DNA from: Candidatus Latescibacterota bacterium
Lineage (GTDB): Bacteria > Latescibacterota > UBA2968 > GCA-2709665
Direction of reading: 5' to 3'
Length of the DNA stretch: 64,000 bases
NCBI GenBank assembly: GCA_965222075.1
Contig: OZ244937.1
Span: forward strand, 4,896,001 to 4,960,000
Below are positions 23,913 through 60,158 of this stretch, piece by piece. The first letter of the stretch is position 1; each line of letters begins with the position of its first letter. A program made the translations under genes and the position numbers. The notes below the pieces were generated by a model. The model searched no databases. It was not told where the DNA came from and saw nothing but the letters and a program-made list of their open reading frames with translations.

Positions 23913-24629
23913 GTGAAGACAAAATTATGGGTAGTGATCACAGCCGGTCTGATTCTTCTGACCTCTACGTTTACAGCGGAGGCGCAGCAGCCGGTACGAA
24001 GGTGGGGCGTCGGTACGTTTCTGGCCTACAACAGCGCGCTTTTCTCGCTGCGGGACCAGTACACCGGTGGGGCCAAGTACGGGTTGAACTGGCATTACAG
24101 CCTCAGCCCCAGGGTATATATCGAGGCGGAGTATCACCGTTCGGAGTTCGAACGCGGCAAGCTGGAGGACGCGATGTTTACGTGGACGGTGGACGGGAAG
24201 GACTACAGGAGCCCCAATGCGAGTGCGGAGATGAGGTTTTCCAGCGGGGTGGTGAACCTGCTGATTTTCCACCAGGCGCAGCCGTCGTTCAAGTCTGGCG
24301 ATTTTGTGTATTACTTCCAGGTTGGCGGCGGGTTCTACGATTACAAATCGGAGCGCCGGAACTTCGTCTACCCGGGGCAGAAGACGAAGCCGCTGGACGT
24401 GTCGGTGGTGCTTCCGCTTCAGATTGACGCGCGCGCAGCGCTGTCTGCGCACGCCGGGTTCGGCGTTCAGGCGTTTGCGTTTGATAAGATCGCGGTGGAC
24501 TTGCGGGCGCGCTATCATATTGTGATGGGCGATGTGAGGCCGATGATCGCCTTTGGGGTTGAGAAGAAGACGTTCCCGATCCAGTTGCTCGATCTGGTCG
24601 CGGGATTGAAGTTCTACTTCTGGAAATAG
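23913..24629 (+). CDS. Small outer-membrane beta-barrel protein (module 1)
   Basis: GTG start after AAGGAGG; signal peptide ending AEA; alternating beta-strand pattern; C-terminal KFYFWK. Confidence 0.7.
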   Translation: MKTKLWVVITAGLILLTSTFTAEAQQPVRRWGVGTFLAYNSALFSLRDQYTGGAKYGLNWHYSLSPRVYIEAEYHRSEFERGKLEDAMFTWTVDGKDYRSPNASAEMRFSSGVVNLLIFHQAQPSFKSGDFVYYFQVGGGFYDYKSERRNFVYPGQKTKPLDVSVVLPLQIDARAALSAHAGFGVQAFAFDKIAVDLRARYHIVMGDVRPMIAFGVEKKTFPIQLLDLVAGLKFYFWK

Positions 24630-24642
24630 AGGAGGATGAGAT

Positions 24643-27600
24643 ATGAAGTCAAACAGGCGTTTAACTATTCTTGCCGGGATGCTGGCCCTGGTACTTGCCC
24701 TGTCCACCCCGGCCGTGTTTGCGGGTTCGACGGGGAAAATTAACGGGCGGGTCACCGGCGCAGACGGGTCACCGTTGCCCGGAGCCAGTTTGGTGATAGA
24801 GGACCGTCAGCAGGGGACTGTTACAGACACGGAAGGCTTCTACGTGATTGTAGCGGTAGACCCGGGGTCCTATACTTTGACCGCGTCGCTGGTGGGGTAT
24901 ACGACGGTGACGAAGAAGGACGTGAACATTACGGTCGATTATACCACGCCGGTGAATTTCACGCTGAAGGAAGAGGCGATCGAGGCGGCCGAGATCGTGG
25001 TGACGGCCGAGCGCCCGCCGGTGGAGCTGGACAAGACTTCGACCCGCTATGTGCTGTCGCCCGCCGATATTGACGAAGCCCCGCTTGTGAAGTCGACGGC
25101 GGAATTGATCGGCCTGCAGCCGGGCGTGGACATGGGCGGGACCTTTTCGATCCGCGGGTCGGACGTGACCTGGGGCGAGCAGAAGTTCGCGGATAACGCG
25201 ACCTGGTCTTATGCCGGCACCGATGTCAAAGTGCTGATTGACGGTGTGCCCGTTCCCGGCAACGACGGCGACCAGGCCAACATTTTTACGGGGGTGAACA
25301 AGAGCGCGGTGCAGCAGATCTCGATCGAGACAGGCGTGACCCCGGCGGAGTACGGAGATGCTCAGGGCGGCACGATCAACATCGTGACGCAGGATGGGGC
25401 GAAGGAGTACCGCGGGTGGATCGAGGGCAACTACGAGCCTGCGGGTCAGAAGCACTGGGGGGCGAACCTGTACGACGCTCCCATACACAGGGACCGGATG
25501 CGGTGGGACGACCCGGAGTGGCTGGCGGAGACCGACCCTGTTTCGGGCCGGGTTATCCATGTGCGGGACAACTATGACGAGGTGAGTGGATGGCTTGTGG
25601 AGGGTAGCCTGTCCGGGCCGATCGGTCCGCGGGCCTCCTTTCTTGGATCGATAAAGCACCAGGCGTTTGCGGCGCCCTTTCCGCAGCCCTCGGAGCGCGG
25701 CTTCTACAACGACCGAGGGCGCTTTATGAACGCGGACGACTTTATCCAGGGGTCAGGCAGCGTGACCCTCAAGCCCACGCCCGGCACGAAGGTGAAGGTG
25801 GGCGTGGTGCTGCAGCACTGGACGGGGTTCCAGAACGAGCTCAATGAGTGGGGCTTCTTCAAAAACGGGTACAACCGCGGGCTGCTGGCCAACGGCCGCA
25901 ACGTGTTTATGCCGAAGAATTTTTCAACAATGGGCCGACAGCTGCGGCGGGAGGACCTGGAGTACGTGACGTTCACCCATACGCTCACGCCCAAGACCTT
26001 CTACGAGGTGCGCTTCGGACGCAGCCGGACGCTCCAGGATACCATGGACACCGTTGGCGCCACGATTGACGGGCGGAAGGACGCGGACGGCTGGTTCAAC
26101 ACCTACAAAGAGATCAAGATGTGGATGCTTTCGGACCGGACGCGTTACAGCTTTAAGGTCGACCTGTCCAGCCAGATCACCAAGGGAAACTTTGTGAAGA
26201 CCGGCTTCGAGATCGTTCGCTGGAGTGCCTGGTCCCAGTACTGGGCGGGGTTGAGGCGGGCCGACAACTGGTGGACGATGTACGCAGGCGGGGACACCCC
26301 CTGGGTGCCGGGCACGCCGGCCAAGCCGATCCGAGGGGCGATCTATGTGCAGGACAAGATGGAATTCGAGGGGTTGATCGTGAATGCGGGCGTGCGCTTA
26401 GACTTCAACAAGCACACGCACAGAGAGCTGAAGACCTCGGCGTTTCACTGGGCGCCGATGTGGCGGATGTACAACAACCGGCATTTCGGCTACGGCCAGG
26501 GTTCGGCGCCCGCCGGGCTGAGGGTGTCGGACGACTTTATCGCCACCCCGCCGACGCAGTTTGCGATCAGCCCCAGATTGGGGGTTTCGCATCCGATCAC
26601 GGACCGGGCGAAGCTGCACTTCTCGCTTGGACGGTTCGTGCAGTGGCTGGAAGTGCGCGACCAGTACTCCAAGTCGTGGCGGGACTACGGCAGGATCGGC
26701 CCGGACGGAGACCCCACCTGGCAGGACTTAAACAGCGACGGGGTGCGGCAGGCGTCTGAGAATATGTCCAACATGGAGCCCCTCTACTTCGGGCCGGGGG
26801 GCGAACCCTGGGTGAATCCGGAGGAGACGCTGACGTTCGAGGTGGGGATGGACTGGAACTTCGTGGCCGACTATAACGCGTCGCTGACGATGTTCTACCG
26901 GAACGAGACGAACCAGATCGTTCGCGGGGCCACCACCTGGAACGGGGCGAAGCGGGGCCGGCGGAACACCCAGGGCTCGATGAACGGGCGAATAGCCTAC
27001 GGCAAGGGCCTCGAACTGGCGGTGGGGAAGCGGCTGAGCAACTACTTCTCCTTCCGCGTGGCCTGGACGGGGATGTGGGGGGCGCGGGGCGGCACCGGGA
27101 TCTCGAACCACGGCGCGCATATTATCGCGGACTCCAACTTTGTGGTCAGCCCGAATTTCTGGTATGACTTCACCTACGGCGCAGACGGGTCGGCCACGCC
27201 GGTTCCGCTGACGGCCCAGGAGAAGGTGGAGTTCGGCGGCGAGAACAACAGGTACATCCAGGGCTTGCGGGACGCCGCCACGGAGAACCTGTACCTGTAC
27301 TTTGGCGGGTACGATGATGCGACGCTCAACAACCTGGGGATAAACGTCCGCTACAATTCCTACGGCGGGCGCTGGTACGGCCCGTTCGGGATCCGCGGCG
27401 AGCCGGTGGTGGGCGGTGTCATCGGCCAGGCGAGCGTGCAGTTCGTGCTGAATACCCCCTCGAACGTAAACTTCGGCGGCCGGTTTCTGAGCTGGCTGGT
27501 CAGCGACTTAAGCGCCACCACGCTCTGGACGATGCGTTCTGGCGCCAACGTCAACTGGCAGCCGCCTGAAGGGGGCGGGGCCAAGATCACGAAGGGCCCG

Positions 27601-27876
27601 ATCGAGTCGGCGACGGATCTGAGTGTCGAGAAGGTGTTCAACGCGAAGGGCCGCCTGAAGCCGGCGCTCTTCGTCGAGATCCGGAACGTGTTCAACGACA
27701 AGATCGACATCAACCCGGTCAGCAGCCGGGGAACCACCGGGACGGACTACATGCTCTGGGGCCTGGATATGGCCCGGCCGGACAATCCGGATTTCCTCAA
27801 TTACGGCGACTTCGGTGACCGGGGCTATTTCAGCACGCCCAGGCAGACGAACATGGGCCTGCGCCTGACCTTTTAG
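24643..27876 (+). CDS. TonB-dependent receptor with N-terminal carboxypeptidase-regulatory-like domain (module 1)
   Basis: GKINGRV…LPGASL…GTVTD.EGFY; EIVVTAERP; plug IRG…IDGV…PAEYGDAQGGTINIVT; SPRLGVSHPITD; C-terminal PRQTNMGLRLTF. Confidence 0.88.
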   Translation: MKSNRRLTILAGMLALVLALSTPAVFAGSTGKINGRVTGADGSPLPGASLVIEDRQQGTVTDTEGFYVIVAVDPGSYTLTASLVGYTTVTKKDVNITVDYTTPVNFTLKEEAIEAAEIVVTAERPPVELDKTSTRYVLSPADIDEAPLVKSTAELIGLQPGVDMGGTFSIRGSDVTWGEQKFADNATWSYAGTDVKVLIDGVPVPGNDGDQANIFTGVNKSAVQQISIETGVTPAEYGDAQGGTINIVTQDGAKEYRGWIEGNYEPAGQKHWGANLYDAPIHRDRMRWDDPEWLAETDPVSGRVIHVRDNYDEVSGWLVEGSLSGPIGPRASFLGSIKHQAFAAPFPQPSERGFYNDRGRFMNADDFIQGSGSVTLKPTPGTKVKVGVVLQHWTGFQNELNEWGFFKNGYNRGLLANGRNVFMPKNFSTMGRQLRREDLEYVTFTHTLTPKTFYEVRFGRSRTLQDTMDTVGATIDGRKDADGWFNTYKEIKMWMLSDRTRYSFKVDLSSQITKGNFVKTGFEIVRWSAWSQYWAGLRRADNWWTMYAGGDTPWVPGTPAKPIRGAIYVQDKMEFEGLIVNAGVRLDFNKHTHRELKTSAFHWAPMWRMYNNRHFGYGQGSAPAGLRVSDDFIATPPTQFAISPRLGVSHPITDRAKLHFSLGRFVQWLEVRDQYSKSWRDYGRIGPDGDPTWQDLNSDGVRQASENMSNMEPLYFGPGGEPWVNPEETLTFEVGMDWNFVADYNASLTMFYRNETNQIVRGATTWNGAKRGRRNTQGSMNGRIAYGKGLELAVGKRLSNYFSFRVAWTGMWGARGGTGISNHGAHIIADSNFVVSPNFWYDFTYGADGSATPVPLTAQEKVEFGGENNRYIQGLRDAATENLYLYFGGYDDATLNNLGINVRYNSYGGRWYGPFGIRGEPVVGGVIGQASVQFVLNTPSNVNFGGRFLSWLVSDLSATTLWTMRSGANVNWQPPEGGGAKITKGPIESATDLSVEKVFNAKGRLKPALFVEIRNVFNDKIDINPVSSRGTTGTDYMLWGLDMARPDNPDFLNYGDFGDRGYFSTPRQTNMGLRLTF

Positions 27877-27879
27877 CTG

Positions 27880-27913
27880 AAGAGGGGGGCACAGCCCGGG
27901 GTTGCGCCCTCTT
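27880..27913 (+). other. Intergenic stem-loop without a U-tract between the TBDR and cargo gene
   Basis: AAGAGGG…CCCTCTT outer arms with an imperfect inner stem; same position as the hairpin at 49813. Confidence 0.4.
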
Positions 27914-27946
27914 ATTTACCGGGAACGAGACGGAAGGAGGATTGTG

Positions 27947-30313
27947 ATGAAGTATATCCGAACGTGGGGGCTGGTTGTCGCTGTGGCGCTGCTTACTGTG
28001 GGGGCGGCCGACCTCTTCGCGCAGTCGTTTCAGTCGCCGGCGGCGTGGCTGAACCGGCCGATGCTGACGGCGCCTTTTCGCAACTACGCCGTGCAGGGCC
28101 AGTGGTTCAATTCGGGTGCGGGAAATTCGCCGTATCTGACATATCCGAACAATCTTTCGGGCGGCGGAGGCTACGGCAGCCCCGGGAATGTTGGAAACTA
28201 TACGCTTACCATGCGAAACGGTCACGGGTTCTGGAGCCTGACGCCGGACGGAAGGGTGGTCTATTCGGGCCCCCGGCTGGACATGGTGGACCAGCACTTC
28301 AGCGCCATGCAATACGATGTGAGCGCCGATCCGGAGCTATCGAAGCTGGGTACGCAGTGGTACCAGGTCCGCAGGCCGGAGGTTAAGATGGGCAACGGGG
28401 CTGCGTTCACCGGCGGGATTTCAGAGACGAGCCTGGGCGGGAACTGGTGGCCGGGTTCGGATCTGATTGAGGAGGGGAAAAAGACGGGGGGCGTTGCCCT
28501 GGTGCCGGTGCACATCAATAACTTCAACTTAGGCGCTTACCCGACCGTGGACGAGTGGCCCGAAGAGATTATCATCACGAAGACCACGAATTCGCAGGGG
28601 CTGACGATTACGGAGCGGGCGATGGCCTGGAGCCACCCCGACTTCGACGATTTCTTCATCGATGAGTATATCATCGAGAACACGGGGGATACGGATGGAG
28701 ACGGGGAGCGGGACCTGCCGATGGTCCCTTTAAACGACGTGTACTTAGGCTTAGAGGATATGTTCAACAACAGCTGCGTGGGGCAGGAGGCCTACCAGCG
28801 CTACTGGCACAACCACATCGAAGACGCCGAAGACGATCACTACGCCTACGATGGGGATGTCAAGCTGCTCTACAACTGGGACGGGGACCACGTTACCATC
28901 AATACCTGGGACGACACGGGGGACCCGTACAGAGACGCGTTTGCGTGGCAGGGTTCGAAGGGCACTCAGGCCGAAAGCCAGCTGAATTCGCCTGCGCACC
29001 TGGGTGTGGCCGTGCTGGCGTATACGGACGATCCGACGAGCCCCTACAGGTTCAATGCCCGCGATATGGCCGAGGGTTACATCGCGCCCGCTGGGGAGCA
29101 GCCATTTGCGGTGCGGTTCTGGCAGGTGTTTGGCGTGGTGGGCTTTCTGCAAAGCACAGGTACGGGCAAAATTGCGATGCCCTACCAGGCGCTGGATCCC
29201 AACTTGGGGGCGATGACAGAAGCGGAGATCTTCTCCGCGGTGCTGGGGGCCGGACCGCAGTTCGACCCGAGCCCGTCCCGGCCGAGTTCCCAGTTTTCCA
29301 TGATGCTGTTCGGGCCGTATGACCTGCCCGCCGGCGGCAAGGCCAAGATCGTGGTGGCGTATGCGGCGGGGCATCCCGGGCAGGTGCTGGGGAATACGGA
29401 CATCTGGACGTGGGCGAGGAAGGGCAACCAGGGCGAACTGCCCAAGGGCTTAGATGCGCTCAAGCAGAACGTGGAGGCTGCCCGATTCGCTTATGCCAAT
29501 ACCTATGATATCCCGGACGCGCCGCCGGATGCGAACTTCCGCACGGGCAGCAATGCGACGGCGAATATGCAGGTCGAATGGTCGAACGGGGTGGAAAGTT
29601 CTGCGCATCCGGACTACGGATCGGCCGATGTTGCGGGCTACCGGGTCTATCGGTCCACCATTGTTTCCGACGGGCCGTGGGAGCTGATCGCGGACATCCC
29701 GAAAGGGACCTCGAGCCTGGAAACGCCGACGTACGGGGTGTTCGGCAGTGGCAGCAATTATGTGATTGAGGACAAGCGGTCCGTGGCCGGGTTCTTCTAC
29801 CACTACAGCGTGCGCCCCTACGCCAGCGGCCATACGGACTGGACGCCTGGGGGCAACCCGAACGCCCCGCTGGGGTTAAACGACCTCCCCTCCCATATCG
29901 CTTCGCGCGTGCAGGTGGGGCAGGAGGGGGGCTGGTCTGCGAAGACGCAGCGGGTCTATGCGGCCGAGTCGCCCTTTGCGGTGCCGTCGTCGGAGACGGA
30001 GTCGTTGAATGCCGAGGTGTGGGTGGTGCCCACGCCCTATTACGAAAAAGGGGAGGCGCACCAGTATCCGGGATCGGAGAAGATCCGGTTTGTGGGCATC
30101 CCGTCCAAGTGCCGGATTCGGATCTACTCCGTGTCCGGGGAGCTGGTAGGCGACATCAGTGTGAACAACCCGGGCAAGGCGGAGAGCGACTTCGACCAGG
30201 TGACGTGGAACAACAGCGGGCAGCTCGTTTCGGGGGTCTACTTCTGGGTGGTGGAGAATCTGACCGGCAGCGGCCAAGCGCTCCAGAAGGGCACTCTCAT
30301 GGTGATCCGATAG
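27947..30313 (+). CDS. Secreted ~790-aa protein with FN3-like domain and T9SS type A/FlgD-Ig-like C-terminal domain (module 1)
   Basis: Signal peptide; PDAPP…AGYRVYRS…YHYSV FN3-like segment; C-terminal VVPTPY…IRF…IRIYSVSGELV…SGVYFWVV…GTLMVIR. Confidence 0.7.
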   Translation: MKYIRTWGLVVAVALLTVGAADLFAQSFQSPAAWLNRPMLTAPFRNYAVQGQWFNSGAGNSPYLTYPNNLSGGGGYGSPGNVGNYTLTMRNGHGFWSLTPDGRVVYSGPRLDMVDQHFSAMQYDVSADPELSKLGTQWYQVRRPEVKMGNGAAFTGGISETSLGGNWWPGSDLIEEGKKTGGVALVPVHINNFNLGAYPTVDEWPEEIIITKTTNSQGLTITERAMAWSHPDFDDFFIDEYIIENTGDTDGDGERDLPMVPLNDVYLGLEDMFNNSCVGQEAYQRYWHNHIEDAEDDHYAYDGDVKLLYNWDGDHVTINTWDDTGDPYRDAFAWQGSKGTQAESQLNSPAHLGVAVLAYTDDPTSPYRFNARDMAEGYIAPAGEQPFAVRFWQVFGVVGFLQSTGTGKIAMPYQALDPNLGAMTEAEIFSAVLGAGPQFDPSPSRPSSQFSMMLFGPYDLPAGGKAKIVVAYAAGHPGQVLGNTDIWTWARKGNQGELPKGLDALKQNVEAARFAYANTYDIPDAPPDANFRTGSNATANMQVEWSNGVESSAHPDYGSADVAGYRVYRSTIVSDGPWELIADIPKGTSSLETPTYGVFGSGSNYVIEDKRSVAGFFYHYSVRPYASGHTDWTPGGNPNAPLGLNDLPSHIASRVQVGQEGGWSAKTQRVYAAESPFAVPSSETESLNAEVWVVPTPYYEKGEAHQYPGSEKIRFVGIPSKCRIRIYSVSGELVGDISVNNPGKAESDFDQVTWNNSGQLVSGVYFWVVENLTGSGQALQKGTLMVIR

Positions 30314-30335: not shown

Positions 30336-31319
30336 ATGAAAATTCGATTGACACTCCTGCTCGCCGCGATGGGGGTGCTCCTGTTTACGCCTCCGGGCGG
30401 CGCAGTGGTGGAGGACCCGATCAAGCGGCGGACCGACACGCAGAAGTTTGTTGGACTGGGCGGATATCAGTTTCTCAAGATCGGCCAGGCCGCACGGGCG
30501 GTGGGCATGGGGGATGCGTATACGGCCGTGGCCGAGGACGTCAACGCGATCTTCTGGAACCCGGCGGGGCTGACGGATATCCGCGGGACGGCCTGGATGG
30601 CCACCTATACGAAGTGGCTGGTGAGTTCCTACGCCTTTTCCGGCGCCTTCGCCTTCAATACGGGCTCGGACAAGGGGGGGGTGATCGGGGCCAGTGTGGT
30701 CGCGTTCCGGCCTTCGGATATCCCGGAGCGGACGATCTTCCAGCCTCAGGGCACGGGCAACACCGTGTCCGCCGGGGACCTGGCCATCGGCGTGGTCTAC
30801 GCGCTGAAGCTGACGAACAAGTTCTCGTTCGGCACCCGGGTGCAGCTGGTCAATCAGACGCTGCATACCGAGAGCCTCCGTTCGATCATCATCGACGTGG
30901 GGACGCGGTTCTACACGGGCTACAGGAGTCTGCGGGTGGCCATGGCGTTGAAGAACTTCGGCCCGGACAAGACGGTGAACGATCGGAAGTTCTTTACGCC
31001 GCTGTATTACAACGTGGCCATAGCGGCCGAGCTTTTCGCGGAGAAGGGCGATCCCACCTATCTGACGGTGACGGGAGAGACGGCGTTTGCTGCGGACTAC
31101 ACGCTGCGCGCGCACGTGGGCGCGGAGCTGTGGATGCAGAACATCATCGCGCTGCGGACGGGCTACAAGTTCAACTACGACTCGGACTCCTTCAGCGTGG
31201 GCGCGGGGTTGAACTACAAGATCACCGGGGACCGTTCGGTGACGGTGGACCTCTCGTATTCCGACATGGGCAATTATCTTATTGCGCCCATCCGGGTGAC
31301 GGTGGGGGGGACGTTTTAG
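30336..31319 (+). CDS. PorV/PorQ-family outer-membrane barrel (module 1)
   Basis: FLKIGQAARAVGMGDAYTAVAEDVNAIFWNPAGL signature; signal peptide; C-terminal Phe. Confidence 0.85.
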   Translation: MKIRLTLLLAAMGVLLFTPPGGAVVEDPIKRRTDTQKFVGLGGYQFLKIGQAARAVGMGDAYTAVAEDVNAIFWNPAGLTDIRGTAWMATYTKWLVSSYAFSGAFAFNTGSDKGGVIGASVVAFRPSDIPERTIFQPQGTGNTVSAGDLAIGVVYALKLTNKFSFGTRVQLVNQTLHTESLRSIIIDVGTRFYTGYRSLRVAMALKNFGPDKTVNDRKFFTPLYYNVAIAAELFAEKGDPTYLTVTGETAFAADYTLRAHVGAELWMQNIIALRTGYKFNYDSDSFSVGAGLNYKITGDRSVTVDLSYSDMGNYLIAPIRVTVGGTF

Positions 31320-33993: not shown

Positions 33994-33997
33994 GCTT

Positions 33998-53376: not shown

Positions 53377-53424
53377 AAAGCCGGCGGTCACCTCCCGGAT
53401 AAAGGGGGTGCCGTCGGCTTTTTT
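53377..53424 (+). terminator. Intrinsic terminator after the PorV-family gene
   Basis: AAAGCCGGCGG-T-CACCTCC…GGGGGTG-CCGTCGGCTTT followed by a T-tract. Confidence 0.7.
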
Positions 53425-53664: not shown

Positions 53665-56217
53665 ATGGAGAAGAAGCGCTTTGGTCTGTTAATCGGTCGG
53701 ATCGCAGGGGGTGTGGTGGTCCTGCTCTGGCTGGTAGGGAGCGTCCCGGCTCAGGAAGATGGTGATGTATCCCCGGAGGCGTCGGAAGCGACAGCGGACA
53801 CGTCCAGGGCGAAAAAGGAGGCGGCGGTGCAGGCGCTGGAGCAGCGCGTGCAGGCCGATCCGGACGATGCGGAGCAGTGGCTGCAACTGGGCCACGCCCG
53901 CCTGGATGCGGGAGACCTGAAGGGGGCGGAAAAGGCGTTTGAAAAGGCCGAATCCAGGGGGGGGGATGAGGTGGATGCGAAGGCCTACAACGGGTTGGGG
54001 CTGGTTTACACGGAACGCCCGCGCCAGCTTCAGACGGCGATCCATTTCTTCCAGAAGGCCCTGAGGAAGGCCCCTCGCTACGTAGAGGCGCACTACAACA
54101 AGGCGCGGGCGTATTACACTCACAACTGGCTTTCCCACGCGATTAAGGCGGCCAAGGACGCCTTAGCCGTGGATTCCACGCACGTGGCAGCGCAGCAGCT
54201 CATCGACAGGTGCCGCGCGATCAAGGTGGAGGATGCGGGAAAGTCGAAGGAGATGTACGAGAAATACCTGGAGTCAAAGCCGGAGGACATGATGAGCTGG
54301 GTGGAATGGGGGAAGCTGGCGGTGGTGGAGGGAGACTACGAGCAGATTCTGAACCGTCTGCCGGGTGTAATCGAGGCGAACCCGGGGTGGTGGGAGCTGT
54401 TCCCGATCCTGGGGCAGGCCTTCTGGAAGGTGAACATGCTGGAACCGGCGGGGATAGCCTTCAGCAGGTATGTGGAGGGCTTAGAGGAGGAGGAACGGGT
54501 GCTGTATGAAGACCTGAGCCTGGTCACGTGGGGGGATGAGACCCGCGCATTTGAAGCGGCCACCGGGGAAGACCGGAGGGAGGTGGCGAAGCGCTTCTGG
54601 GCGGAGCGGGACCCGGACTATACGACGCCGGTCAACGAGCGCCAGTTAGAGCACTACCGGAGGGTGTGGTATGCGCGGACCTATTTCTCAAGGTATAAGC
54701 AGCCCTGGGACCGGCGGGGGGAGGTCTACATCCGCTACGGGGAGCCGGACCACCGAAGCCGATCCAGGCACCCAAGCCCGCCCCTTTCGGAGTCGGTAAC
54801 CGCGGTGAAGGAGCGGTATTTCAATCTGATCTACAGCAATATGCACTCCCTCCTGTCCATGGGCGGCGGGTCTGAGATCAACACGGGCGCAGAGGGTGCG
54901 GATTACCCCGTTTACGATATTTCCCAGGGCGAGGCGCCGCAGAATTTCGGCGATCTGTTCGGGGATGAGGACCGGTATCAGGGCAATCAGGGCACGTCGA
55001 GGGGCATCGAGTGGTACGACGCGGTTACGGGCGGGCTGACCGGGTCGCTGGTGGGGCCGGTTTTTCCGGTGCGCTCCTACGATCCCAATGTGGCAGGGGG
55101 CGTGTATCTGCCGGTCGGTTCGAGCGATTTCAGCATGGTGAAGTGGGAGTCGTGGACCTACACGCACATCGACGGGGGAATCGTGATCGACTTTACCGAC
55201 GAGATCGGCAAGTCGGGGTTCGACTACGCGCCAATTCCGGATTTGCACAAGACGCCGGGGTTGCGGCACGGGTCCACCGCAGGGATGGACGACATCCGGG
55301 CGATGACCGCCTTTACCCGGCGGGCGCCGATGACGATTATGCGCACGGCGGCGGCGGCGGTGCCGGAGCAGTATACGATCCCGGAGGAGGACCGTCCCAT
55401 GGACTTCTACTTCGATCAGGCGAAGTTCCGGGCGGTGGCGGACTCCGCCCACGTGGAGGTCTACTATGGGGTGCCGATGGCGGAGACGACCTACTTTGCG
55501 GGCGACGATGTGACCGGGCTGCGGGCGGCCTGCCGGGTCGCGCTTGCAGAAGTGGATAAGGAGGACGGGAGGATTTACCGGTCCGAGAGCGAGCTGGTCT
55601 ACGTGGAGCCGGGAGATCGGACCGGGGGGAGCAGATTTAGGATTATCCCCCACGTGGTCGCCTTAGACGTCCCTCCCGGTGAATACACCCTGGACGTGCG
55701 GATGGAGAACCGGCTGGATGGGGAGATCGGCACCTACCGGAAGCGTCTGACCGTGGAGCCGTATCCGGGCGGACCGCTCAAGCTGAGCGACGTTCAACTG
55801 GCCTGGAAGGTCACCGAAGAGGGACCGCCGGATAGGTTCTCCAAGAACGGCCTGAAGGTGCTGCCGATGCCGACGCGGCTTTATAAGAGGGGCCAGCCGG
55901 TGTTCCTCTACTACGAGATCTACAATCTGAGGCGGGACGAGTTCGGGATGACCAACTACACGGTGGAGTATATGATACGGTCGGGCAAGCCGCCCGGGGT
56001 GATCTCGCGGCTCTTTCGGGCGTTTCAGGGTGGGGAGAAGGACGAACGGGTGGCGGTGGCGCAGGAGCAGCTGGGCACGCAGGAGACGCAGCCCAGTTAC
56101 ATCGAGCTGGATTTGAGCGAGGTCGTGCCGGGGGAGGTGGTGTTGACGGTGACGGTGGAGGACCTCAACTCGGGCGAGACGGTGTCGAGGGAGGCGAAGT
56201 TCGAAATTATGGAATAA
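53665..56217 (+). CDS. TPR + GWxTD-domain protein A (module 2)
   Basis: Signal peptide; TPRs; PWDRRGEVYIRYGEPD; paralogue of 31547-33967. Confidence 0.8.
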   Translation: MEKKRFGLLIGRIAGGVVVLLWLVGSVPAQEDGDVSPEASEATADTSRAKKEAAVQALEQRVQADPDDAEQWLQLGHARLDAGDLKGAEKAFEKAESRGGDEVDAKAYNGLGLVYTERPRQLQTAIHFFQKALRKAPRYVEAHYNKARAYYTHNWLSHAIKAAKDALAVDSTHVAAQQLIDRCRAIKVEDAGKSKEMYEKYLESKPEDMMSWVEWGKLAVVEGDYEQILNRLPGVIEANPGWWELFPILGQAFWKVNMLEPAGIAFSRYVEGLEEEERVLYEDLSLVTWGDETRAFEAATGEDRREVAKRFWAERDPDYTTPVNERQLEHYRRVWYARTYFSRYKQPWDRRGEVYIRYGEPDHRSRSRHPSPPLSESVTAVKERYFNLIYSNMHSLLSMGGGSEINTGAEGADYPVYDISQGEAPQNFGDLFGDEDRYQGNQGTSRGIEWYDAVTGGLTGSLVGPVFPVRSYDPNVAGGVYLPVGSSDFSMVKWESWTYTHIDGGIVIDFTDEIGKSGFDYAPIPDLHKTPGLRHGSTAGMDDIRAMTAFTRRAPMTIMRTAAAAVPEQYTIPEEDRPMDFYFDQAKFRAVADSAHVEVYYGVPMAETTYFAGDDVTGLRAACRVALAEVDKEDGRIYRSESELVYVEPGDRTGGSRFRIIPHVVALDVPPGEYTLDVRMENRLDGEIGTYRKRLTVEPYPGGPLKLSDVQLAWKVTEEGPPDRFSKNGLKVLPMPTRLYKRGQPVFLYYEIYNLRRDEFGMTNYTVEYMIRSGKPPGVISRLFRAFQGGEKDERVAVAQEQLGTQETQPSYIELDLSEVVPGEVVLTVTVEDLNSGETVSREAKFEIME

Positions 56218-56227
56218 GGCGGTTTTT

Positions 56228-56259
56228 GAATCCGCATTCTGAAATCCGAAATCTACAAT
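56228..56259. repeat. Degenerate heptamer repeat (ATCCGCA/TTCTGAA/ATCCGAA/ATCTACA) at a gene junction
   Basis: 7-nt periodicity; same repeat family as 44210-44243. Confidence 0.5.
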
Positions 56260-56273
56260 GGTCAGGAGCCGGG

Positions 56274-59200
56274 ATGAGGCATCTTATGAGAAGGCCGGGC
56301 GGCCTGTTGAGCGCGGTCGTTGCTCTGGCGGCCGTCTGTGGTTCACTGCCAGCGGTTGCGTGGCAGGCAGGCAGGCAGGCACAGGTCAACGGTGTGAGGT
56401 CTCCCGACGGGAAGGGTCTGGCCTACACGGTGGCCAGGGGCAGGCCGGAGGCGCTGATGACCGAGATCCGGACGGCGCGTGCGGATGGGAGCGGGGGCCA
56501 GCTGGTCAAGGCCTACCTGGGCGAGCCGGGCGATCTTTGTTTTCTGCCGGGGGGCGAAGGGTTCGTCTACCTCCAGGTGAGCCTTTCCTATACGGTCTTC
56601 GGATCGCACCTCTGCGCCGAGTATAAGTTGCCCCTGATGCGGAATCGGGTCTGGCGGCTGAAGGCGGATGGGTCGTCCGAGACGCTCTGGCCCCTGCCCG
56701 GGGAGCTTCAGCCGCTCAGGATTGCGGTTTCTCCGGATGGGGGGCGGCTGGCTGTGGGCGGGTTCCGGGGGAGCCTGCAGGACCGTGAGGACCGGGGGCT
56801 GTGGGTTGTGGACCACAGCGGGGCCGCCGTCCGGCTGCTGAACGGCCGGGTGACCGGACCTTTGCGATGGTCCTCCGATTCGGGGCGGATTTTCTGTGCC
56901 GTGGAGGAGGGGGGGTGTTTGAGGGGCGTGGCCGTGCAGGTGGGAACGGGCGAGGTGACGGACGCAGATGCGCCGGAAGCTGAAGCGTACGCAGGGGGCG
57001 ACGATGCCGCGCCCGCCGATGTCGTCGATGGGACAGCACCCGGTCTGATCAGCAATGCGCTGGACCGGTATACGAAGGGCTACCACGCGATGCACCAGGA
57101 CAGGCCCTACCGGCTGATAAAGAACGCATATAAGGGGGCCATCCGTGCCTTTGAGCAGCTTTACAAAGGAGGGATCTCAAAAGCGGACTGCCTCGGCTAC
57201 ATCCAGACGCTGCGTGCCCGGATCCCTAAGAAAAAGGGTGAGGGTGAGAGGAGGCACCGACGGGCCAGCTGCCGGGAACACCAGCTTGTTGTGGGCACCC
57301 TGTTTGAAGGTTACGCGCAGGCGCACGGGCAGCTTCCCCCTACCTTAGAGGACCTGCGCTTCTGGGTGGAGCGCCAGGTCGAAGAGAGGGCCTCCCGGGA
57401 GGAGGCGCCCGAGGAGGCCATAGAGAGAGATCGGACGACCCTGGCCCGTATTTTTCACTGTGCGACCGATCCCGACCGGGAGCGGTCGATCAGCTACGTG
57501 TACCGGCCCGAGGCGCCCCCGGGCACCCCGGTGCTTCTCTGCTACTGGCACCGGGGCGAACTGCTTCGCCTCAGGGAGAGGTCGGGAGGGTACGGCGCTG
57601 AGGTCCTGACCTTGTATCCCGATCAGATCGATTCCTTAGATGCGGCGGCGGCCGGCTACCTGGAGGCAGAGGCGGCGGACAGCGCCGTTGCCCTCCTGGA
57701 GGTGGTGTCCCATCAGCGCCACAAAGACCCGGTTTCGCACAATAAATACGGTTATGCCGCACTTGAGGCAAAGGACGATGCGCTGGCAGAGAAGGCGTTT
57801 AAGCGGGCGGCCTCCCTGAGCAAGGGGAAGGTGCTGGCCAGGGCGTATTACGGCCTGGGGCTGATCAATATGGAGCGTTCCAGGGGTCGGCAGACGGCCA
57901 TCGAATATTTCCGGGACGCCCTGAGCCGGGACCGGAAATTTGTGGACGCCAGATACCAGATGGCCAGGGCGCGCGTTCTCCTGTGGCAGTATGACGCAAA
58001 GTCCGACATTGAGAAGGTCCTGAAGATGGACCCGAATTATGCGGATGCCTACCTGCTGATGGGGGACTACGAGGCGGACCTCAATAAGGAATACGAGCGC
58101 GCGATCCCCTGGTATACGAAGTATCTGGCGCTGCGGCCCGACGATCCGGTGAGCCGGAACCGGCTGAGCATGGCCTATTTGCACGTGAAGGACTACGACA
58201 AGGTTATGGAGACGCTGCTGGGATTCGTCCAGGAGCATCCGGATGCGATTGAACTGCTGCCGATTGTCTCCCAGGCGTGCGCCAAACAGGATAAGCTGGA
58301 CCTGGCGATGGGCTTCTTCAAGGCGTATGTTTCAAAGCTCGACCCGGAGGAGCGGGCGCTTTACAAGGATATCAGCCGGTTCGCCTCGAAGGAGGAGCTG
58401 GCGGAGTATTCCAGGGCCTCCGGCGCGGAGCAGGAGGCGTTTTTGAAGCGCTTCTGGAACGGGCGGGACCCGGACCTGTCCACGCCGGTCAACGAGCGCC
58501 TCCTGGAGCACTACCGGCGGGTGTGGTATGCCCGGCAGAGCTTCTCGAAGGAGCGGCAGCCGTGGGATATGCGCGGGGAGGTCTACGTGCGGTTCGGGGA
58601 GCCGGACCACCGGACGAGTTCGGCGATGATGAACGCCAGGCAGAGTCTGGAGGTGCAGCGGGTCAAGGAGCGGATGGCCCTGGACATTTATGGGACCGAT
58701 GGGAGCCAGGCGAGCTTCGTTGGGCCGGTATACCCCGTGCGTACCCTTGCGATGGGGGCGCGCCTCCGCGACTTACAGGGCGAATTCGAGGCGTCGGAGG
58801 TTGAGGTTATCACCGAAGATGTTGACGACCAGCAGCTGGATATAGTGGCCGCCGGCCCCAATACACGAACGAACACTGAATCGGGGATGATGCAGCGGGG
58901 GGAAGGGGGAAACCAGCAGTCTCAGCTGCAGTCACAGTCCCAATCTCAGTCGCAGTCGCAGACCCTGGTCACAGCGGCCATCAGCGATGCTTCCGACGGC
59001 TCGTTTAGCGGCGATCTGATGGAAATCAATGAGATGTTGAACTTAGAGGGGACCTTTTCGGTGGCCGGGGAGGATTTCTTAAAGTTCGGGGAATACCGTC
59101 CTGTCATCACTTCCGGCGCAGATGTCTCCACGGTCCCCTGGGAGTCCTGGGTCTACACCCGGATCGGCGGGGGTATTGAGATCACCTTTACCGACGAGTC

Positions 59201-60158
59201 GGGCAAGGGGGCTTACAATTATGCCCCCATCCCGATGGCCTTCGACGTTTCCGCACGTCAGATGACCAAGTTTGCACGGTATGCGCCGGAGACCATTTTT
59301 CAACGGGCGGTTGCGGCCTTTCCCGACTTCTACACGCCCGAATACGACAAGATCCCCTTTGATTTCTACTTTGATCTGGCCGATTTTCGGGGGGACAATG
59401 GAAAGAGCGTCGTAGAGATCTACTACGGAATGCCCGGCATGGCGTCCCGGTACTTTCCCAGAGAGGGTGTGACGCGGCTGGTGGTGAAACGCCAGGCCGC
59501 CCTGGTGGGGACGTCTCTGGATACGGTCTACCGGACATCGGGCGACCTGTTCTACCAGGCGCCGGGGTCCAGGGTCGGGGCGTTTGTTCCCGATATTGTG
59601 CGACTGGAGGTGCCTCCCGGAACCTACCGGCTGGAGGTGCGGGCTCGGGACCGGATGACGGGCCGGATCGGCCTTTACCGGAAGGAAGTGGAGGTGGAGG
59701 GCTACGCAGGGGAGGGGCTGCAGCTGAGCGACCTGACCCTGGCCTGGCGGATTGCCCAGGACCAGCCGATGGACAAGTTCACCAAGAACGGGCTGCACAT
59801 CGTTCCGATGCCCACCCGGATGTATCCCCAGGGGCAGGGCATCTTTGTCTACTACGAGATCTACAACCTGGTGCGGGACTCGTTCGGGCAGACGAGGTAC
59901 CGGGTGGAGTATACGATCCGGCCGGCGGGGGGGAATATTGTTTCGCGGCTGGTGCGGACGTTTGTGGGGAAGAAGAAGGAGGTGGTGGTGGGCTACGAGC
60001 AGGTCGGTTATAAGGAGGCGGAGTCGGTGTATATGGAGCTGGATCTGGGTGAGACCACACCGGGACGGCACTATTTGAAGGTTGAGGTGACGGATTTGAA
60101 CAGCGAGGAGGCGGTGACGGCGCTGAAGGATGTGCCCTTTACGGTGGCTCGGCAGTAG
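56274..60158 (+). CDS. TolB-like + TPR + GWxTD-domain protein B (module 2)
   Basis: RBS AGGAG; paralogue of 33998-37774; PWDMRGEVYVRFGEPD; contains a QS-repeat tract. Confidence 0.8.
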   Translation: MRHLMRRPGGLLSAVVALAAVCGSLPAVAWQAGRQAQVNGVRSPDGKGLAYTVARGRPEALMTEIRTARADGSGGQLVKAYLGEPGDLCFLPGGEGFVYLQVSLSYTVFGSHLCAEYKLPLMRNRVWRLKADGSSETLWPLPGELQPLRIAVSPDGGRLAVGGFRGSLQDREDRGLWVVDHSGAAVRLLNGRVTGPLRWSSDSGRIFCAVEEGGCLRGVAVQVGTGEVTDADAPEAEAYAGGDDAAPADVVDGTAPGLISNALDRYTKGYHAMHQDRPYRLIKNAYKGAIRAFEQLYKGGISKADCLGYIQTLRARIPKKKGEGERRHRRASCREHQLVVGTLFEGYAQAHGQLPPTLEDLRFWVERQVEERASREEAPEEAIERDRTTLARIFHCATDPDRERSISYVYRPEAPPGTPVLLCYWHRGELLRLRERSGGYGAEVLTLYPDQIDSLDAAAAGYLEAEAADSAVALLEVVSHQRHKDPVSHNKYGYAALEAKDDALAEKAFKRAASLSKGKVLARAYYGLGLINMERSRGRQTAIEYFRDALSRDRKFVDARYQMARARVLLWQYDAKSDIEKVLKMDPNYADAYLLMGDYEADLNKEYERAIPWYTKYLALRPDDPVSRNRLSMAYLHVKDYDKVMETLLGFVQEHPDAIELLPIVSQACAKQDKLDLAMGFFKAYVSKLDPEERALYKDISRFASKEELAEYSRASGAEQEAFLKRFWNGRDPDLSTPVNERLLEHYRRVWYARQSFSKERQPWDMRGEVYVRFGEPDHRTSSAMMNARQSLEVQRVKERMALDIYGTDGSQASFVGPVYPVRTLAMGARLRDLQGEFEASEVEVITEDVDDQQLDIVAAGPNTRTNTESGMMQRGEGGNQQSQLQSQSQSQSQSQTLVTAAISDASDGSFSGDLMEINEMLNLEGTFSVAGEDFLKFGEYRPVITSGADVSTVPWESWVYTRIGGGIEITFTDESGKGAYNYAPIPMAFDVSARQMTKFARYAPETIFQRAVAAFPDFYTPEYDKIPFDFYFDLADFRGDNGKSVVEIYYGMPGMASRYFPREGVTRLVVKRQAALVGTSLDTVYRTSGDLFYQAPGSRVGAFVPDIVRLEVPPGTYRLEVRARDRMTGRIGLYRKEVEVEGYAGEGLQLSDLTLAWRIAQDQPMDKFTKNGLHIVPMPTRMYPQGQGIFVYYEIYNLVRDSFGQTRYRVEYTIRPAGGNIVSRLVRTFVGKKKEVVVGYEQVGYKEAESVYMELDLGETTPGRHYLKVEVTDLNSEEAVTALKDVPFTVARQ

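Follow-up and report, generated by a model that had tools for sequence, protein, structure and literature searches.

In Bacteroidota, much is known about T9SS cargo-barrel pairs and, as a separate subject, about TonB-dependent utilisation loci. In the window (the whole 64-kb stretch of DNA analyzed here), genes of both kinds stand side by side, and they do so twice: ORF mapping places a small outer-membrane protein (OMP), a TonB-dependent receptor (TBDR), a T9SS cargo-like protein, a PorV-like barrel and two GWxTD proteins, A and B, in identical order on the plus strand at 23913-37774 and again at 45878-60158 (Table 1). The locus raises the question of which of these genes belong together, i.e., whether all six constitute one envelope machine, as a sequence-only reading of this DNA had proposed, or whether the unit is smaller.

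The duplicated six-gene block

The products of the two copies share 54-69% amino acid identity (blastp, module 1 against module 2). The same six genes, present twice in the same order as diverged paralogues, are therefore confirmed with the ORFs as previously placed; the gene identities assigned earlier hold as well, and the starts chosen for the two OMP genes each lie immediately 5' of a signal-peptide-like N-terminus. All 12 module genes are under purifying selection, with dN/dS of 0.13-0.32 against orthologues in L002 and L004 (L numbers denote loci of the survey described below). The two-module tandem layout is also kept in OZ252228 (L002 and L011) and in Plut_88899 (L001 and L004). The two modules of the window are old tandem paralogues inside a large cassette family.

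Table 1. Genes and hairpins of the two modules; identities are blastp values against the module 1 copy.
Feature	Coordinates	Strand	Description	Identity to module 1 copy
OMP1	23913..24629	+	exported, beta-barrel-like, small; GTG start at 23913 gives 238 aa; longest ORF from 23676	
TBDR1	24643..27876	+	1077 aa; N-terminal CarboxypepD_reg, Plug, EIVVTAE TonB-box-like motif	
GC-rich hairpin	27878..27918	+	directly 3' of TBDR1 stop; -21.3 kcal/mol, z -1.8 (modest)	
cargo1	27947..30313	+	788 aa; signal peptide, core without family, FN3-like stretch, T9SS-type CTD at ~residues 690-788	
PorV1	30336..31319	+	PorV/PorQ-family outer-membrane barrel, 327 aa; NF033709 164.6 bits	
Terminator-like hairpin with T-rich tail	31373..31420	+	3' of PorV1; -32.1 kcal/mol, z -2.6	
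GWxTD-A1	31547..33967	+	exported; TPR repeats, GWxTD domain, C-terminal region of ~370 aa; ORF opens at 31499	
GWxTD-B1	33998..37774	+	1258 aa; N-terminal PD40-like region, TPR repeats, GWxTD domain, C-terminal region	
OMP2	45878..46588	+	236 aa from TTG 45878; longest ORF from 45755	54% over 255 aa, E 9e-103
TBDR2	46610..49807	+	1065 aa; CarboxypepD_reg, Plug, EIVVTAE	59% over 1077 aa
18-bp hairpin	49813..49852	+	3' of TBDR2 stop; -34.3 kcal/mol, z -6.9	
cargo2	49889..52303	+	804 aa	54% over 819 aa
PorV2	52325..53353	+	PorV/PorQ-family barrel, 342 aa; NF033709 180.2 bits	69% over 339 aa
Two tandem rho-independent terminator-like hairpins	53377..53470	+	3' of PorV2; U6 run each; -47 kcal/mol, z -5.4	
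GWxTD-A2	53665..56217	+	850 aa	61% over 850 aa
GWxTD-B2	56226..60158	+	1310 aa from TTG 56226; ATG at 56274	62% over 1309 aa

The noncoding punctuation proposed earlier, a hairpin 3' of the TBDR gene and a terminator 3' of the PorV-like gene, is present in both copies. The stability of the TBDR2 hairpin was equaled in 0 of 200 shuffles, and the hairpin is kept in the orthologous locus L004; a hairpin comparable to that of TBDR1 occurs in 8 of 20 related loci examined. At gathering threshold, Rfam returned no match in the whole 64-kb window.

Duplication of the whole block, retention of 6/6 genes in both copies at similar divergence, purifying selection on every gene and the tandem layout shared with OZ252228 and Plut_88899 all speak for one obligatory envelope machine with GWxTD-A and -B as integral subunits, whereas in both modules the predicted terminators separate the first four genes from the GWxTD pair.

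The proteins of the block

OMP1 and OMP2 score 22-23 bits with PF13505, under its cut-off of 28.7; OMP1 also gives an OMP_b-brl match of 24.2 bits, likewise under cut-off, and a weak TIGR04565 match. The two receptors carry an N-terminal CarboxypepD_reg domain (68.7 and 78.9 bits), a Plug domain (32.7 and 38.6 bits, above the Pfam cut-off of 23.9) and, N-terminal to the plug, the TonB-box-like motif EIVVTAE; by plug and TonB box together, both copies classify as TonB-dependent receptors. Their length of ~1070 aa and C-terminal Phe fit a TonB-dependent barrel; none of the Pfam barrel models was hit with E of 0.01 or less, and NCBIfam gave only weak stretches at residues 720-809. With the SusC/RagA model TIGR04056 they reach 66-71 bits, far under the cut-off of 368 and over the N-terminal 200 residues only, and a PDB sequence search with the receptor matched nothing beyond a SusC homologue's N-terminal domain (9hfj_A, E 6e-4).

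The third gene had been read as T9SS cargo-like, and its tail supports that reading. Neither cargo1 nor cargo2 matches any Pfam family, the Pfam T9SS tail included, and both tails fall under the curated cut-off of every T9SS CTD model, TIGR04183 and PF18962 among them (cargo1 reaches 14.8 bits with TIGR04183, cut-off 23). By hhalign, 89 cargo tails align over 74 columns, at 97.5% probability and E 7.3e-12, to 11 Por_Secre_tail-type tails of a Neomarinimicrobiota neighbor protein, three of which are Pfam-confirmed while the other eight were picked by similarity to those three; with an HMM of the 11 reference tails, E is 1.6e-7 for cargo2 and 1e-5 for cargo1. In both copies the last ~100 residues, at the extreme C-terminus, are homologous to T9SS type A tails. 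Among 24 cargo homologues, nine match the PorZ tail (best E 2.9e-9), four the PorU tail and seven TIGR04183 at E 0.05 or better, and cargo2 itself weakly matches the PorZ C-terminus (E 0.0036). CHU_C is matched weakly by 9/24 homologues (best E 2e-5) and by neither window copy, and the type B model TIGR04131 by a single homologue. Further afield, when distant relatives of the core domain are ranked by length, 8 of the top 10 have a Por_Secre_tail above cut-off. The cargo family runs to 1045 representative clusters with E of 1e-3 or less; a PDB sequence search with the cargo profile returned no solved relative. We also considered the cargo as a SusD homologue and rejected this, as no SusD similarity was found.

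Both barrels score above the cut-off of 90 bits for the PorV/PorQ family NF033709 (Table 1) and above that of Pfam PorV (34.9 and 35.4 bits, cut-off 27), and PorV2 matches the Flavobacterium johnsoniae PorV structure 6h3i_F at E 2.5e-8. The three equivalog models, NF033710 (PorV), NF033711 (PorQ) and NF052325 (the equivalog named PorV2), give 63-84, 72-78 and 54-59 bits against cut-offs of 250, 220 and 325; all three are missed, and the window barrels represent a separate PorV/PorQ subfamily. Membership in PorP/SprF was rejected, with no such match in Pfam and NCBIfam scans.

All four GWxTD proteins are members of TIGR04514 (A1 50.4, B1 55.2, A2 61.4 and B2 60.5 bits, cut-off 28); with Pfam GWxTD_dom they score at or below its cut-off of 26.9 (top score 27.1). 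A and B are paralogous to each other (36-46% identity), B corresponding to A plus an N-terminal extension of ~480 aa. PD40 reaches 20.2 bits in GWxTD-B1, slightly under cut-off, and is weakly matched by 3 of 24 B homologues. The B type, ~1250 aa, is very conserved (mean column identity of 59% over 24 sequences) and for this reason looks more housekeeping than substrate-specific. A PDB search with the GWxTD proteins returned TPR proteins only, with no match to the TPR-free part; Pfam and NCBIfam scans found no OmpA-like peptidoglycan-binding domain in the window proteins, and a literature search, supplementary files excluded, found nothing on GWxTD.

The conserved unit and its GWxTD neighbors

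A genome-contig search with the cargo protein gave 302 relatives, from which 79 loci were kept and their neighborhoods read; grouping the cargo homologues at 70% identity or more yielded 27 clusters. A PorV-family gene lies directly 3' of the cargo gene in 25 of these, and a receptor gene directly 5' in 23 of the 25 PorV-linked clusters, the sequence ending before the upstream position in the other two. An OMP homologue stands 5' of the receptor in 15/25. The conserved unit is smaller than six genes: it consists of the OMP, the TonB-dependent receptor, the ~790-aa T9SS-CTD cargo and the PorV/PorQ-family barrel, hereafter the cassette. Receptor, cargo and PorV-like proteins co-diverge (Mantel r 0.83, 0.80 and 0.80, with 0/999 permutations as high), and the PorV and cargo trees have well-supported clades in common. 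The coupling of transporter, cargo and PorV-like protein suggested by the sequence-only reading is thus upheld by both adjacency and co-divergence.

Cassettes turned up in Latescibacterota, Neomarinimicrobiota (Fidelibacterota), MAGs labelled Gemmatimonadota and one or more Bacteroidota MAGs. Two Latescibacterota genomes, OZ244960 and OZ253501, have at least eight loci each, so the two copies in the window are not special but belong to a multi-copy family. In line with the earlier statement that no described system of this composition was known to its author, literature searches that included T9SS outside Bacteroidota, Latescibacter and PorV-like proteins, supplements excluded, found no paper describing the cassette among those listed; in the accessible portion of the Latescibacter paper PMC4454575, the only receptors mentioned are for vitamin B12 and iron. 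The cassette family is widespread and undescribed, a T9SS cargo-barrel pair fused with TonB-dependent uptake, co-diverging and multi-copy.

The claim that all six genes form the conserved unit does not survive the survey. A GWxTD gene is first or second 3' of PorV on the same strand in 8 of the 25 cassette clusters, which involve four different architectures; it lies 7-8 kb upstream in two and is absent from up to 10 kb on either side in 15. Among the latter are all loci from Neomarinimicrobiota and Bacteroidota and all those labelled Gemmatimonas; GWxTD is missing at 23 loci of other phyla, among them Neomarinimicrobiota/Marinimicrobia, one Deferribacteres, one Bacteroidota and four Gemmatimonas-labelled loci. 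The A+B pair is limited to the clade of the window (window, L002, L004 and L011), and in OZ252228 a close cassette paralogue, L008, lacks GWxTD while the same genome also has the six-gene form. Although the eight directly linked clusters add to the arguments from duplication and selection, these absences, the confinement of the pair to one clade and the intervening terminators make an obligatory six-gene machine improbable. GWxTD genes unlinked to the cassette in relatives had been named beforehand as an observation that would refute a common machine, and it is borne out in part, with linkage in 8/25 clusters and absence in 15/25.

If the GWxTD genes are not obligatory, they could be functionally unrelated neighbors carried along as passengers of a 14-kb segmental duplication. 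They are separate transcription units in the window, their family is a large one (of 8000 proteins scored, 522 reach E 1e-3 or better) with a strongly conserved B type, and some of them lie away from a cassette or on the opposite strand (e.g., L014 19073-22192). However, same-strand linkage directly downstream of the cassette recurs across lineages whose cargo proteins are only ~30-35% identical, and it does so with operon-like spacing and differing architectures (460, 497, 829 and 923 aa, plus the pairs); in L014 the start of the GWxTD gene and the stop of PorV overlap. A rough Fisher test finds GWxTD in 8/45 genes at positions +1/+2 and in 6/164 elsewhere (p 0.003), the background being cassette flanks rather than whole genomes and the ORF calls crude and greedy, with some true genes displaced by antisense ORFs (e.g., in L003). 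The eight linked clusters do not amount to eight independent events, because cassette paralogues share ancestry. In OZ252228, four of the five GWxTD proteins among the matches listed, a list biased towards the query, adjoin cassettes (by length match to L002 and L011). Weighing these observations, we consider mere passengers unlikely; the GWxTD proteins are probably optional periplasmic accessories of the cassette and not obligatory parts.

A proposed uptake route and related systems

The genes around the cassettes point to nutrient uptake. Locus L075 reads GntR, TBDR, cargo, PorV, SDR, heparinase/alginate lyase and MFS, and other loci carry sulfatase, beta-helix, BNR, peptidase, GDPD, ceramidase-like and SSF genes. 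In the window itself, a heparinase II/III-like gene is present along with genes for SBP_bac_5, permeases and, three times, DUF6785. This last family, represented in 47 of the 79 loci, consists of polytopic proteins that have 9-15 hydrophobic segments. Given these inner-membrane transporters and catabolic enzymes, the loci resemble polysaccharide utilisation loci (PULs) that lack SusD, no SusD family member having been found among the 34 window ORFs scanned with Pfam. The same scan, extended to NCBIfam for the 12 module proteins, found neither a T9SS core gene nor tonB-exbBD among these ORFs.

We favor, with some confidence, a reading in which each module is a four-gene outer-membrane nutrient-uptake cassette whose cargo leaves by the T9SS, stays on a PorV-like barrel of its own and works for the transporter next to it, with the GWxTD proteins as optional accessories. 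Counting against it are cargo tails and barrels below the curated CTD and equivalog cut-offs, a receptor barrel unmatched by Pfam barrel models, a cargo with no similarity to SusD, no T9SS core or tonB-exbBD gene among the scanned window ORFs and, for the GWxTD part, the 15 clusters that have no such gene nearby, the intervening terminators and the strong conservation of the B type. All four cassette proteins, each with only an N-terminal hydrophobic segment, would cross the inner membrane by Sec. The T9SS translocon would then pass the cargo, whose uncleaved tail may stay on its own PorV-like barrel, as in PorZ-PorQ and PorU-PorV. The displayed cargo would bind or process a surface substrate and hand it to the adjacent transporter, presumably taking the gene position and role that SusD has beside SusC in Bacteroidota. 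Inner-membrane uptake could be completed by products of neighboring genes: in Latescibacterota by DUF6785/6784 proteins and an ABC system, in Neomarinimicrobiota by SSF symporters. The GWxTD-A/B pairs would be exported TPR proteins with transcripts of their own, duplicated along with the cassette.

A different assignment makes the barrel a FadL-type channel for hydrophobic substrates, or a transient shuttle, and the cargo a released secreted enzyme. PorV2 does match the FadL family (Toluene_X) weakly, at E 1.2e-4; Neomarinimicrobiota loci contain lipid-related genes (GDPD, ceramidase-like, PAP2 and esterase), and distant relatives of the cargo core are fused with beta-helix and BNR domains typical of enzymes. 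Yet the barrels score 165-180 bits with the PorV/PorQ model against 21 bits for FadL, and the tails of the homologues are similar to the PorZ and PorU tails, which according to PMC10202324 do not leave their barrels. Moreover, a general shuttle needs no one-to-one, co-diverging pairing of cargo and barrel such as is seen here (r 0.80), and the near-invariant residues of the cargo core are mainly Asp, Gly, Pro and Trp, whereas His, Ser and Cys are nowhere conserved in it. We therefore give a channel or shuttle with a released enzyme little credence. For a core that has neither a known family nor a solved relative, binding instead of catalysis is itself a guess.

A cargo displayed on a private barrel has its nearest parallel in the Porphyromonas gingivalis attachment complex, where a T9SS-CTD protein likewise pairs with a PorV/PorQ-family barrel. 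The uncleaved tails of PorU and PorZ remain on PorV and PorQ there, as stated in the review PMC10202324, which also raises the idea of cognate PorV-like barrels; surface retention of this kind, described for P. gingivalis, would apply to the window cargo by extension. The PorZ and PorU tails are also those that the tails of the cargo homologues match best (9 and 4 of 24). Unlike PorZ, PorU, PorV and PorQ, however, the cassette proteins are not orthologues of these components, as the equivalog cut-offs are missed, and the cassette pairs are multi-copy, lie behind a TonB-dependent receptor gene and occur outside Bacteroidota.

For type B cargo, linkage to the gene of a cognate PorP/SprF-like shuttle is described (PMC12618676 and PMC9143113), and the cassette resembles this arrangement in that the cargo gene adjoins the gene of its own 14-strand-type barrel, which acts there as a specific shuttle or anchor; it differs in that the window barrel is of the PorV/PorQ family and the cargo has a tail closer to those of type A and PorZ. 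In the PorE-PorP-PG1035 complex, periplasmic PorE, with TPR and a beta-propeller, binds the barrel, and on account of their TPR repeats and PD40-like region the GWxTD proteins may have a model in PorE. By this analogy they could perhaps serve as a tether on the barrel, like PorE on PorP. Unlike PorE, they are devoid of an OmpA-like domain, and homology to PorE was not detected; the resemblance is one of layout only.

As in SusC/SusD (RagA/RagB) PULs, a TonB-dependent transporter with N-terminal CarboxypepD_reg has its partner gene directly next to it, the partner being surface-exposed there and putatively so here; many diverged copies occur per genome, with regulators, degradative enzymes and inner-membrane transporters around them, and L075 resembles an alginate locus. 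The cassette departs from these PULs in having no SusD-like protein, in a partner that is T9SS-tailed with its own barrel and not a lipoprotein, in a receptor under the SusC/RagA cut-off and in the extra small OMP gene 5' of the receptor. BamG-BamH of the Bacteroidota BAM, as described in PMC12578637, is similar in that a FadL/PorV-like 14-strand barrel holds a surface protein via its outer loops, whereas the protein held there, a lipoprotein, carries no T9SS tail and BAM is a single-copy housekeeping machine.

If the four-gene reading is correct, it would explain the surface partner of transporters in phyla without SusD, assign a context to the unannotated cargo family and provide a testable setting for GWxTD and DUF6785 proteins. 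A more far-reaching version holds that Latescibacterota and neighboring FCB phyla differ from Bacteroidota in possessing a SusD-less, T9SS-dependent utilisome in which a TonB-dependent transporter works with a T9SS-delivered lid or binding protein that is permanently docked on a private PorV/PorQ-like barrel, with GWxTD as a periplasmic tether in some lineages. We regard this version as unlikely; if it is true, the GWxTD domain would gain a first function, and nutrient uptake would become a main task of the T9SS outside Bacteroidota. Most organisms of the cassette-bearing lineages are uncultured and degrade organic matter in the ocean and in sediments, and the cassette could therefore be used as a metagenome marker to count and classify substrate-uptake systems.

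As a minor observation on the noncoding DNA, a promoter-like repeat pattern has no exact match among the 79 loci; a near copy of it is visible in L004.

Two diverged copies of a six-gene module

The same run of six same-strand genes, in the order OMP, TBDR (the receptor, or transporter), cargo, PorV-like barrel, GWxTD-A and GWxTD-B, occurs twice in the window as the sequence-only reading had described. By blastp, each gene of module 1 pairs with its counterpart in module 2, with E-values from 9e-103 to 0 and identities of 54% (OMP1 and OMP2), 59% (TBDR1 and TBDR2), 54% (cargo1 and cargo2), 69% (PorV1 and PorV2), 61% (GWxTD-A1 and GWxTD-A2) and 62% (GWxTD-B1 and GWxTD-B2). GWxTD-A and GWxTD-B are also mutually paralogous (36-46%), the B protein having ~480 more N-terminal residues. 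Family scans back the labels that had been given to the TBDR, PorV-like and GWxTD genes: both receptors match Plug and CarboxypepD_reg above cut-off, the PorV/PorQ family model (cut-off 90) gives 165 bits for PorV1 and 180 bits for PorV2, and TIGR04514 (cut-off 28) gives 50-61 bits for each of the four GWxTD proteins. The matches behind the OMP label stay below cut-off in both copies, and the cargo, a protein of ~790 residues, matched no Pfam family in either. Each of the 12 module proteins has at most one hydrophobic segment, N-terminal in position (PorV2 slightly below the threshold applied), so that all 12 appear to be exported. Compared with orthologues, dN/dS is 0.13-0.32 across all 12 genes.

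The non-coding punctuation claimed to be conserved is likewise present in both modules. A hairpin follows the stop codon of TBDR1 (-21.3 kcal/mol, z -1.8) and of TBDR2 (-34.3 kcal/mol, z -6.9), and terminator-like hairpins with U-rich tails follow both PorV-like genes, two of them in module 2. Upstream of module 2 lies a 40-nt direct repeat, both copies of which contain TTGACA-17-TACATT (two matches against zero expected by chance). After the first copy comes a hairpin with a T-run; a ~150-nt leader starts behind the second and ends in a U7 hairpin just 5' of OMP2. In L004, a module-2 orthologue, the second copy is conserved together with its hairpin. Rfam gave no match in this region, which could encode a short transcript and an attenuator-like leader.

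Coordinates of features in the window and, where a locus is named, within that locus
Feature	Position	Strand
Module 1, six genes	window 23913-37774	
GWxTD-B1	window 33998-37774	
Module 2, six genes	window 45878-60158	
GWxTD-B2	window 56226-60158	
FG-GAP/ASPIC-UnbV gene	window 37740-39635	
NHL-repeat, sortilin/BNR and FGE-sulfatase genes	window 39959-45403	(-), (-), (+)
40-nt direct repeat, first copy	window 45407-45446	
40-nt direct repeat, second copy	window 45533-45572	
Leader after second copy, end	window 45725	
DUF6785/DUF6784 paralogue, polytopic membrane protein	window 3616-5712	(-)
DUF6785/DUF6784 paralogue, polytopic membrane protein	window 8208-10148	(+)
DUF6785/DUF6784 paralogue, polytopic membrane protein	window 16500-18647	(+)
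DUF2341 + Laminin_G_3 paralogue	window 5945-8083	
DUF2341 + Laminin_G_3 paralogue	window 21610-23757	
Second 40-nt copy and hairpin, conserved	L004 5625-5790	
Two transposase genes (DDE_Tnp_1, ISL3)	L008 3556-6483	
GntR-to-MFS gene run	L075 1052-14213	

The conserved cassette, its GWxTD companions and its duplication

A scan of genome contigs with the cargo alignment returned 302 relatives, the best 80 of which gave 79 loci (each given an L number). These are labelled Latescibacterota (54), Neomarinimicrobiota or Marinimicrobia (13), Gemmatimonadota or Gemmatimonas (6), Deferribacteres (1), Bacteroidetes (1) and bacteria with no phylum label (4); among the best 80 relatives, two Latescibacterota chromosomes (OZ244960 and OZ253501) carry eight loci apiece. 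ORFs were called in all 79 loci and searched with the window proteins, and 98 long cargo ORFs together with the two window copies fell into 27 clusters at 70% identity or more. A PorV-family gene lies immediately 3' of the cargo in 25 of the 27 clusters; the other two are second cargo copies, 2-5 kb 3' of a cassette, in Neomarinimicrobiota. The receptor gene lies immediately 5' of the cargo in 23 of the 25 PorV-bearing clusters, the remaining two having almost no upstream DNA, and an OMP gene precedes the receptor in 15. When the receptor, cargo and PorV-like proteins of 22 cassettes are compared pairwise, their distances correlate (r 0.83, 0.80 and 0.80), with none of 999 permutations as high, and well-supported clades are common to the PorV and cargo trees. 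Together, adjacency, correlated distances and matching clades define the conserved unit as OMP, receptor, cargo and PorV-like barrel.

The GWxTD genes behave differently, so that six genes, as in the single machine proposed earlier, are not the conserved unit. An HMM made from the window's GWxTD proteins found 48 ORFs in 40 of the 79 loci. A same-strand GWxTD gene is the first or second gene 3' of the PorV-like gene in 8 of the 25 cassette clusters and lies 7-8 kb upstream in two; the HMM found none in the locus flanks of the other 15, nor in 19 loci of Neomarinimicrobiota, Deferribacteres, Bacteroidetes and unlabelled bacteria, nor in four Gemmatimonas-labelled loci. At positions +1/+2 after the PorV-like gene, 8 of 45 genes are GWxTD genes, versus 6 of 164 at other positions in these loci (Fisher p 0.003, a rough count based on crude ORF calls with cassette flanks as the only background). 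Linked forms also vary in architecture: the A and B pair is found in the window, L002, L004 and L011, L003 has one A-type gene alone behind the cassette, the L014 group encodes a 460-aa GWxTD protein without TPR repeats whose start overlaps the PorV stop, and further linked forms have 497, 829 and 923 residues. These linkage counts and varied architectures make GWxTD genes a real, recurrent yet optional companion of the cassette in Latescibacterota, the six-gene form being particular to the window's own lineage. L008, a near paralogue of the window cassettes on OZ252228, a Latescibacterota chromosome that also carries the six-gene form, has no GWxTD gene inside 10 kb; a rearrangement is possible there.

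Of 8000 proteins scored, 522 reached E 1e-3 or better, which makes GWxTD a large family; its sole name is 'GWxTD domain-containing protein'. GWxTD-B (~1250 aa) is unusually well conserved: column identity averages 59% across 24 sequences, and three cysteines are invariant (C329, C388 and C415 in GWxTD-B1 numbering). A further conserved cysteine lies within its signal-peptide region (LAAVC) and may mark a lipoprotein. Outside the TPR repeats, the GWxTD domain and a weak PD40 match in 3 of 24 GWxTD-B homologues, nothing recognisable was found, and no solved relative was found.

Orthologues of module 1 occur in L001 and L002 (cargo 95% and 91% identical) and of module 2 in L004 (~90% identity), with L011 the next relative of module 2. 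On OZ252228, L002 and L011 are co-oriented and 2.4 kb apart, and the FG-GAP, sortilin-like and FGE genes found between the modules recur across them. The tandem duplication is therefore older than the split of the genomes that carry these orthologues. The trees group both modules with the L006 and L008 types, in a clade of seven rows, so several duplications took place within it. The post-receptor hairpin is found in 8 of 20 loci checked (L001, L002, L004, L011, L006, L008, L036 and L046) and is lacking where the cargo gene begins immediately after the receptor.

Several neighbouring genes recur as well. The first 35 nt of the FG-GAP/ASPIC-UnbV gene overlap the 3' end of GWxTD-B1; this gene is also 3' of GWxTD-B1 in L002, and given the overlap and shared order it may be part of the module-1 GWxTD transcription unit. 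In L004 and L011, the NHL, sortilin and FGE genes known from between the modules are likewise found 5' of the module-2-type cassettes, and the L006 group has a sortilin-like gene 5' of it. The second of two DUF2341 and Laminin_G_3 paralogues is immediately 5' of OMP1, as in L001 and L002; in L003 such a gene is downstream, between two DUF6785 genes. The window is rich in duplications beyond the modules, with two SBP_bac_5 and two PhyH genes also present. In L008, the transposase genes are immediately 5' of a cassette that has neither OMP nor GWxTD.

The cargo core and its C-terminal tail

A word-indexed search returned 56 cargo relatives, none with a functional name, the few names given being 'hypothetical protein'. 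A profile of the N-terminal 565 positions matched 1045 representative clusters at E 1e-3 or better, so that the core is a large family without description. In a Pfam scan of 55 of 150 listed representatives, Por_Secre_tail was above cut-off in 8 of the 10 longest (1070-1524 aa) and below it in one more, the tail-bearing proteins being fusions with beta-helix, BNR/sortilin or RCC1 domains; of the remaining 45, 43 had no Pfam match and two had CHU_C.

The window cargo tails themselves miss the curated T9SS cut-offs (TIGR04183, 14.8 bits versus 23). An HMM was built from 11 tails of a neighbour protein in Neomarinimicrobiota loci, three of them Pfam-confirmed as Por_Secre_tail and eight picked by resemblance to those three; its E-values are 1.6e-7 for cargo2 and 1e-5 for cargo1. 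By hhalign, the cargo-tail profile aligns with the 11-tail profile over 74 columns (97.5% probability, E 7.3e-12). Among 24 cargo homologues, nine match the PorZ tail (best E 2.9e-9), seven TIGR04183, six a T9SS-dependent M6-like protein, four the PorU tail and one type B; nine match CHU_C in Pfam. These three lines of homology bear out the earlier assignment of a T9SS-type C-terminal domain to the cargo, with a tail nearest those of PorZ and PorU. The predicted signal-peptide cleavage between A and Q in cargo1, cargo2, OMP2 and GWxTD-A2 (LFAQ, LYAQ, VDAQ and VPAQ, respectively) is reminiscent of the N-terminal glutamine rule for proteins exported by Bacteroidota.

Utilisation-locus surroundings and a proposed mechanism

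Neighbouring genes were Pfam-scanned in 20 representative loci. They encode inner-membrane transporters and catabolic enzymes, namely DUF6785/DUF6784 proteins, sodium:solute symporters and one MFS transporter; sulfatase, FGE-sulfatase, heparinase/alginate lyase, beta-helix and BNR proteins; peptidases M14, M20 and S15, GDPD, ceramidase-like proteins and NamZ; and GFO/IDH/MocA oxidoreductases, xylose-isomerase-like barrels and PhyH dioxygenases. DUF6785 proteins, which are polytopic (9-15 hydrophobic segments), are present in 47 of the 79 loci, frequently as the first gene 3' of the PorV-like gene, as in many Latescibacterota cassettes, and are a candidate inner-membrane transporter of these loci. 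The window is of the same character: besides its three DUF6785 genes it has one heparinase II/III-like gene, PhyH genes, a two-component pair, and two SBP_bac_5 genes accompanied by permeases. In L075, from a Bacteroidetes MAG, GntR, receptor, cargo, PorV-like, SDR, heparinase/alginate lyase and MFS genes follow in this order, arranged as in an alginate utilisation locus but with cargo and barrel at the place of SusD. By gene content, the cassette loci thus appear to be utilisation loci of the PUL kind; however, the Pfam scans found no SusD, and TBDR1 and TBDR2 fall below the SusC/RagA cut-off (66-71 bits versus 368).

The analysis establishes the identities of the genes, their export signals, adjacency, co-divergence, copy number and context, and the homology of the cargo tail to T9SS tails; the steps of the mechanism are inferred. 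According to a review (PMC10202324), the PorZ and PorU tails are uncleaved and remain on PorQ and PorV, respectively. By analogy with PorZ on PorQ, the Sec-exported cargo would traverse the T9SS and stay on its private PorV-like barrel by an uncleaved tail; type B cargo does likewise on PorP/SprF-like barrels whose genes lie alongside (PMC12618676 and PMC9143113). Once displayed at the surface, the cargo would capture or process substrate for the transporter next to it, and nearby inner-membrane transporters would carry out the final uptake step. The GWxTD proteins compare best, in layout only, with PorE. This lipoprotein of the periplasm carries TPR and beta-propeller domains and binds PorP, the barrel that holds PG1035 at the surface (PMC9143113). 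The TPR repeats and weak PD40 of GWxTD proteins would parallel that layout, but neither an OmpA-like domain nor homology to PorE was detected in them.

The literature search found no published account of the cassette or of GWxTD function, in agreement with the earlier remark that no such system was known. The cassette's parts are of known kinds; the novelty lies in joining a TonB-dependent transporter to a T9SS-tailed partner with its own PorV/PorQ-like barrel, in multiple copies and outside Bacteroidota. Neomarinimicrobiota loci such as L045, L050 and L055 encode, between OMP and receptor, a 330-aa protein whose Por_Secre_tail domain is confirmed; SSF symporter, GDPD and ceramidase-like genes come after the cassette, and an 'orphan' cargo paralogue lies 2-5 kb 3' of it; L045 also has NamZ (exo-N-acetylmuramidase).
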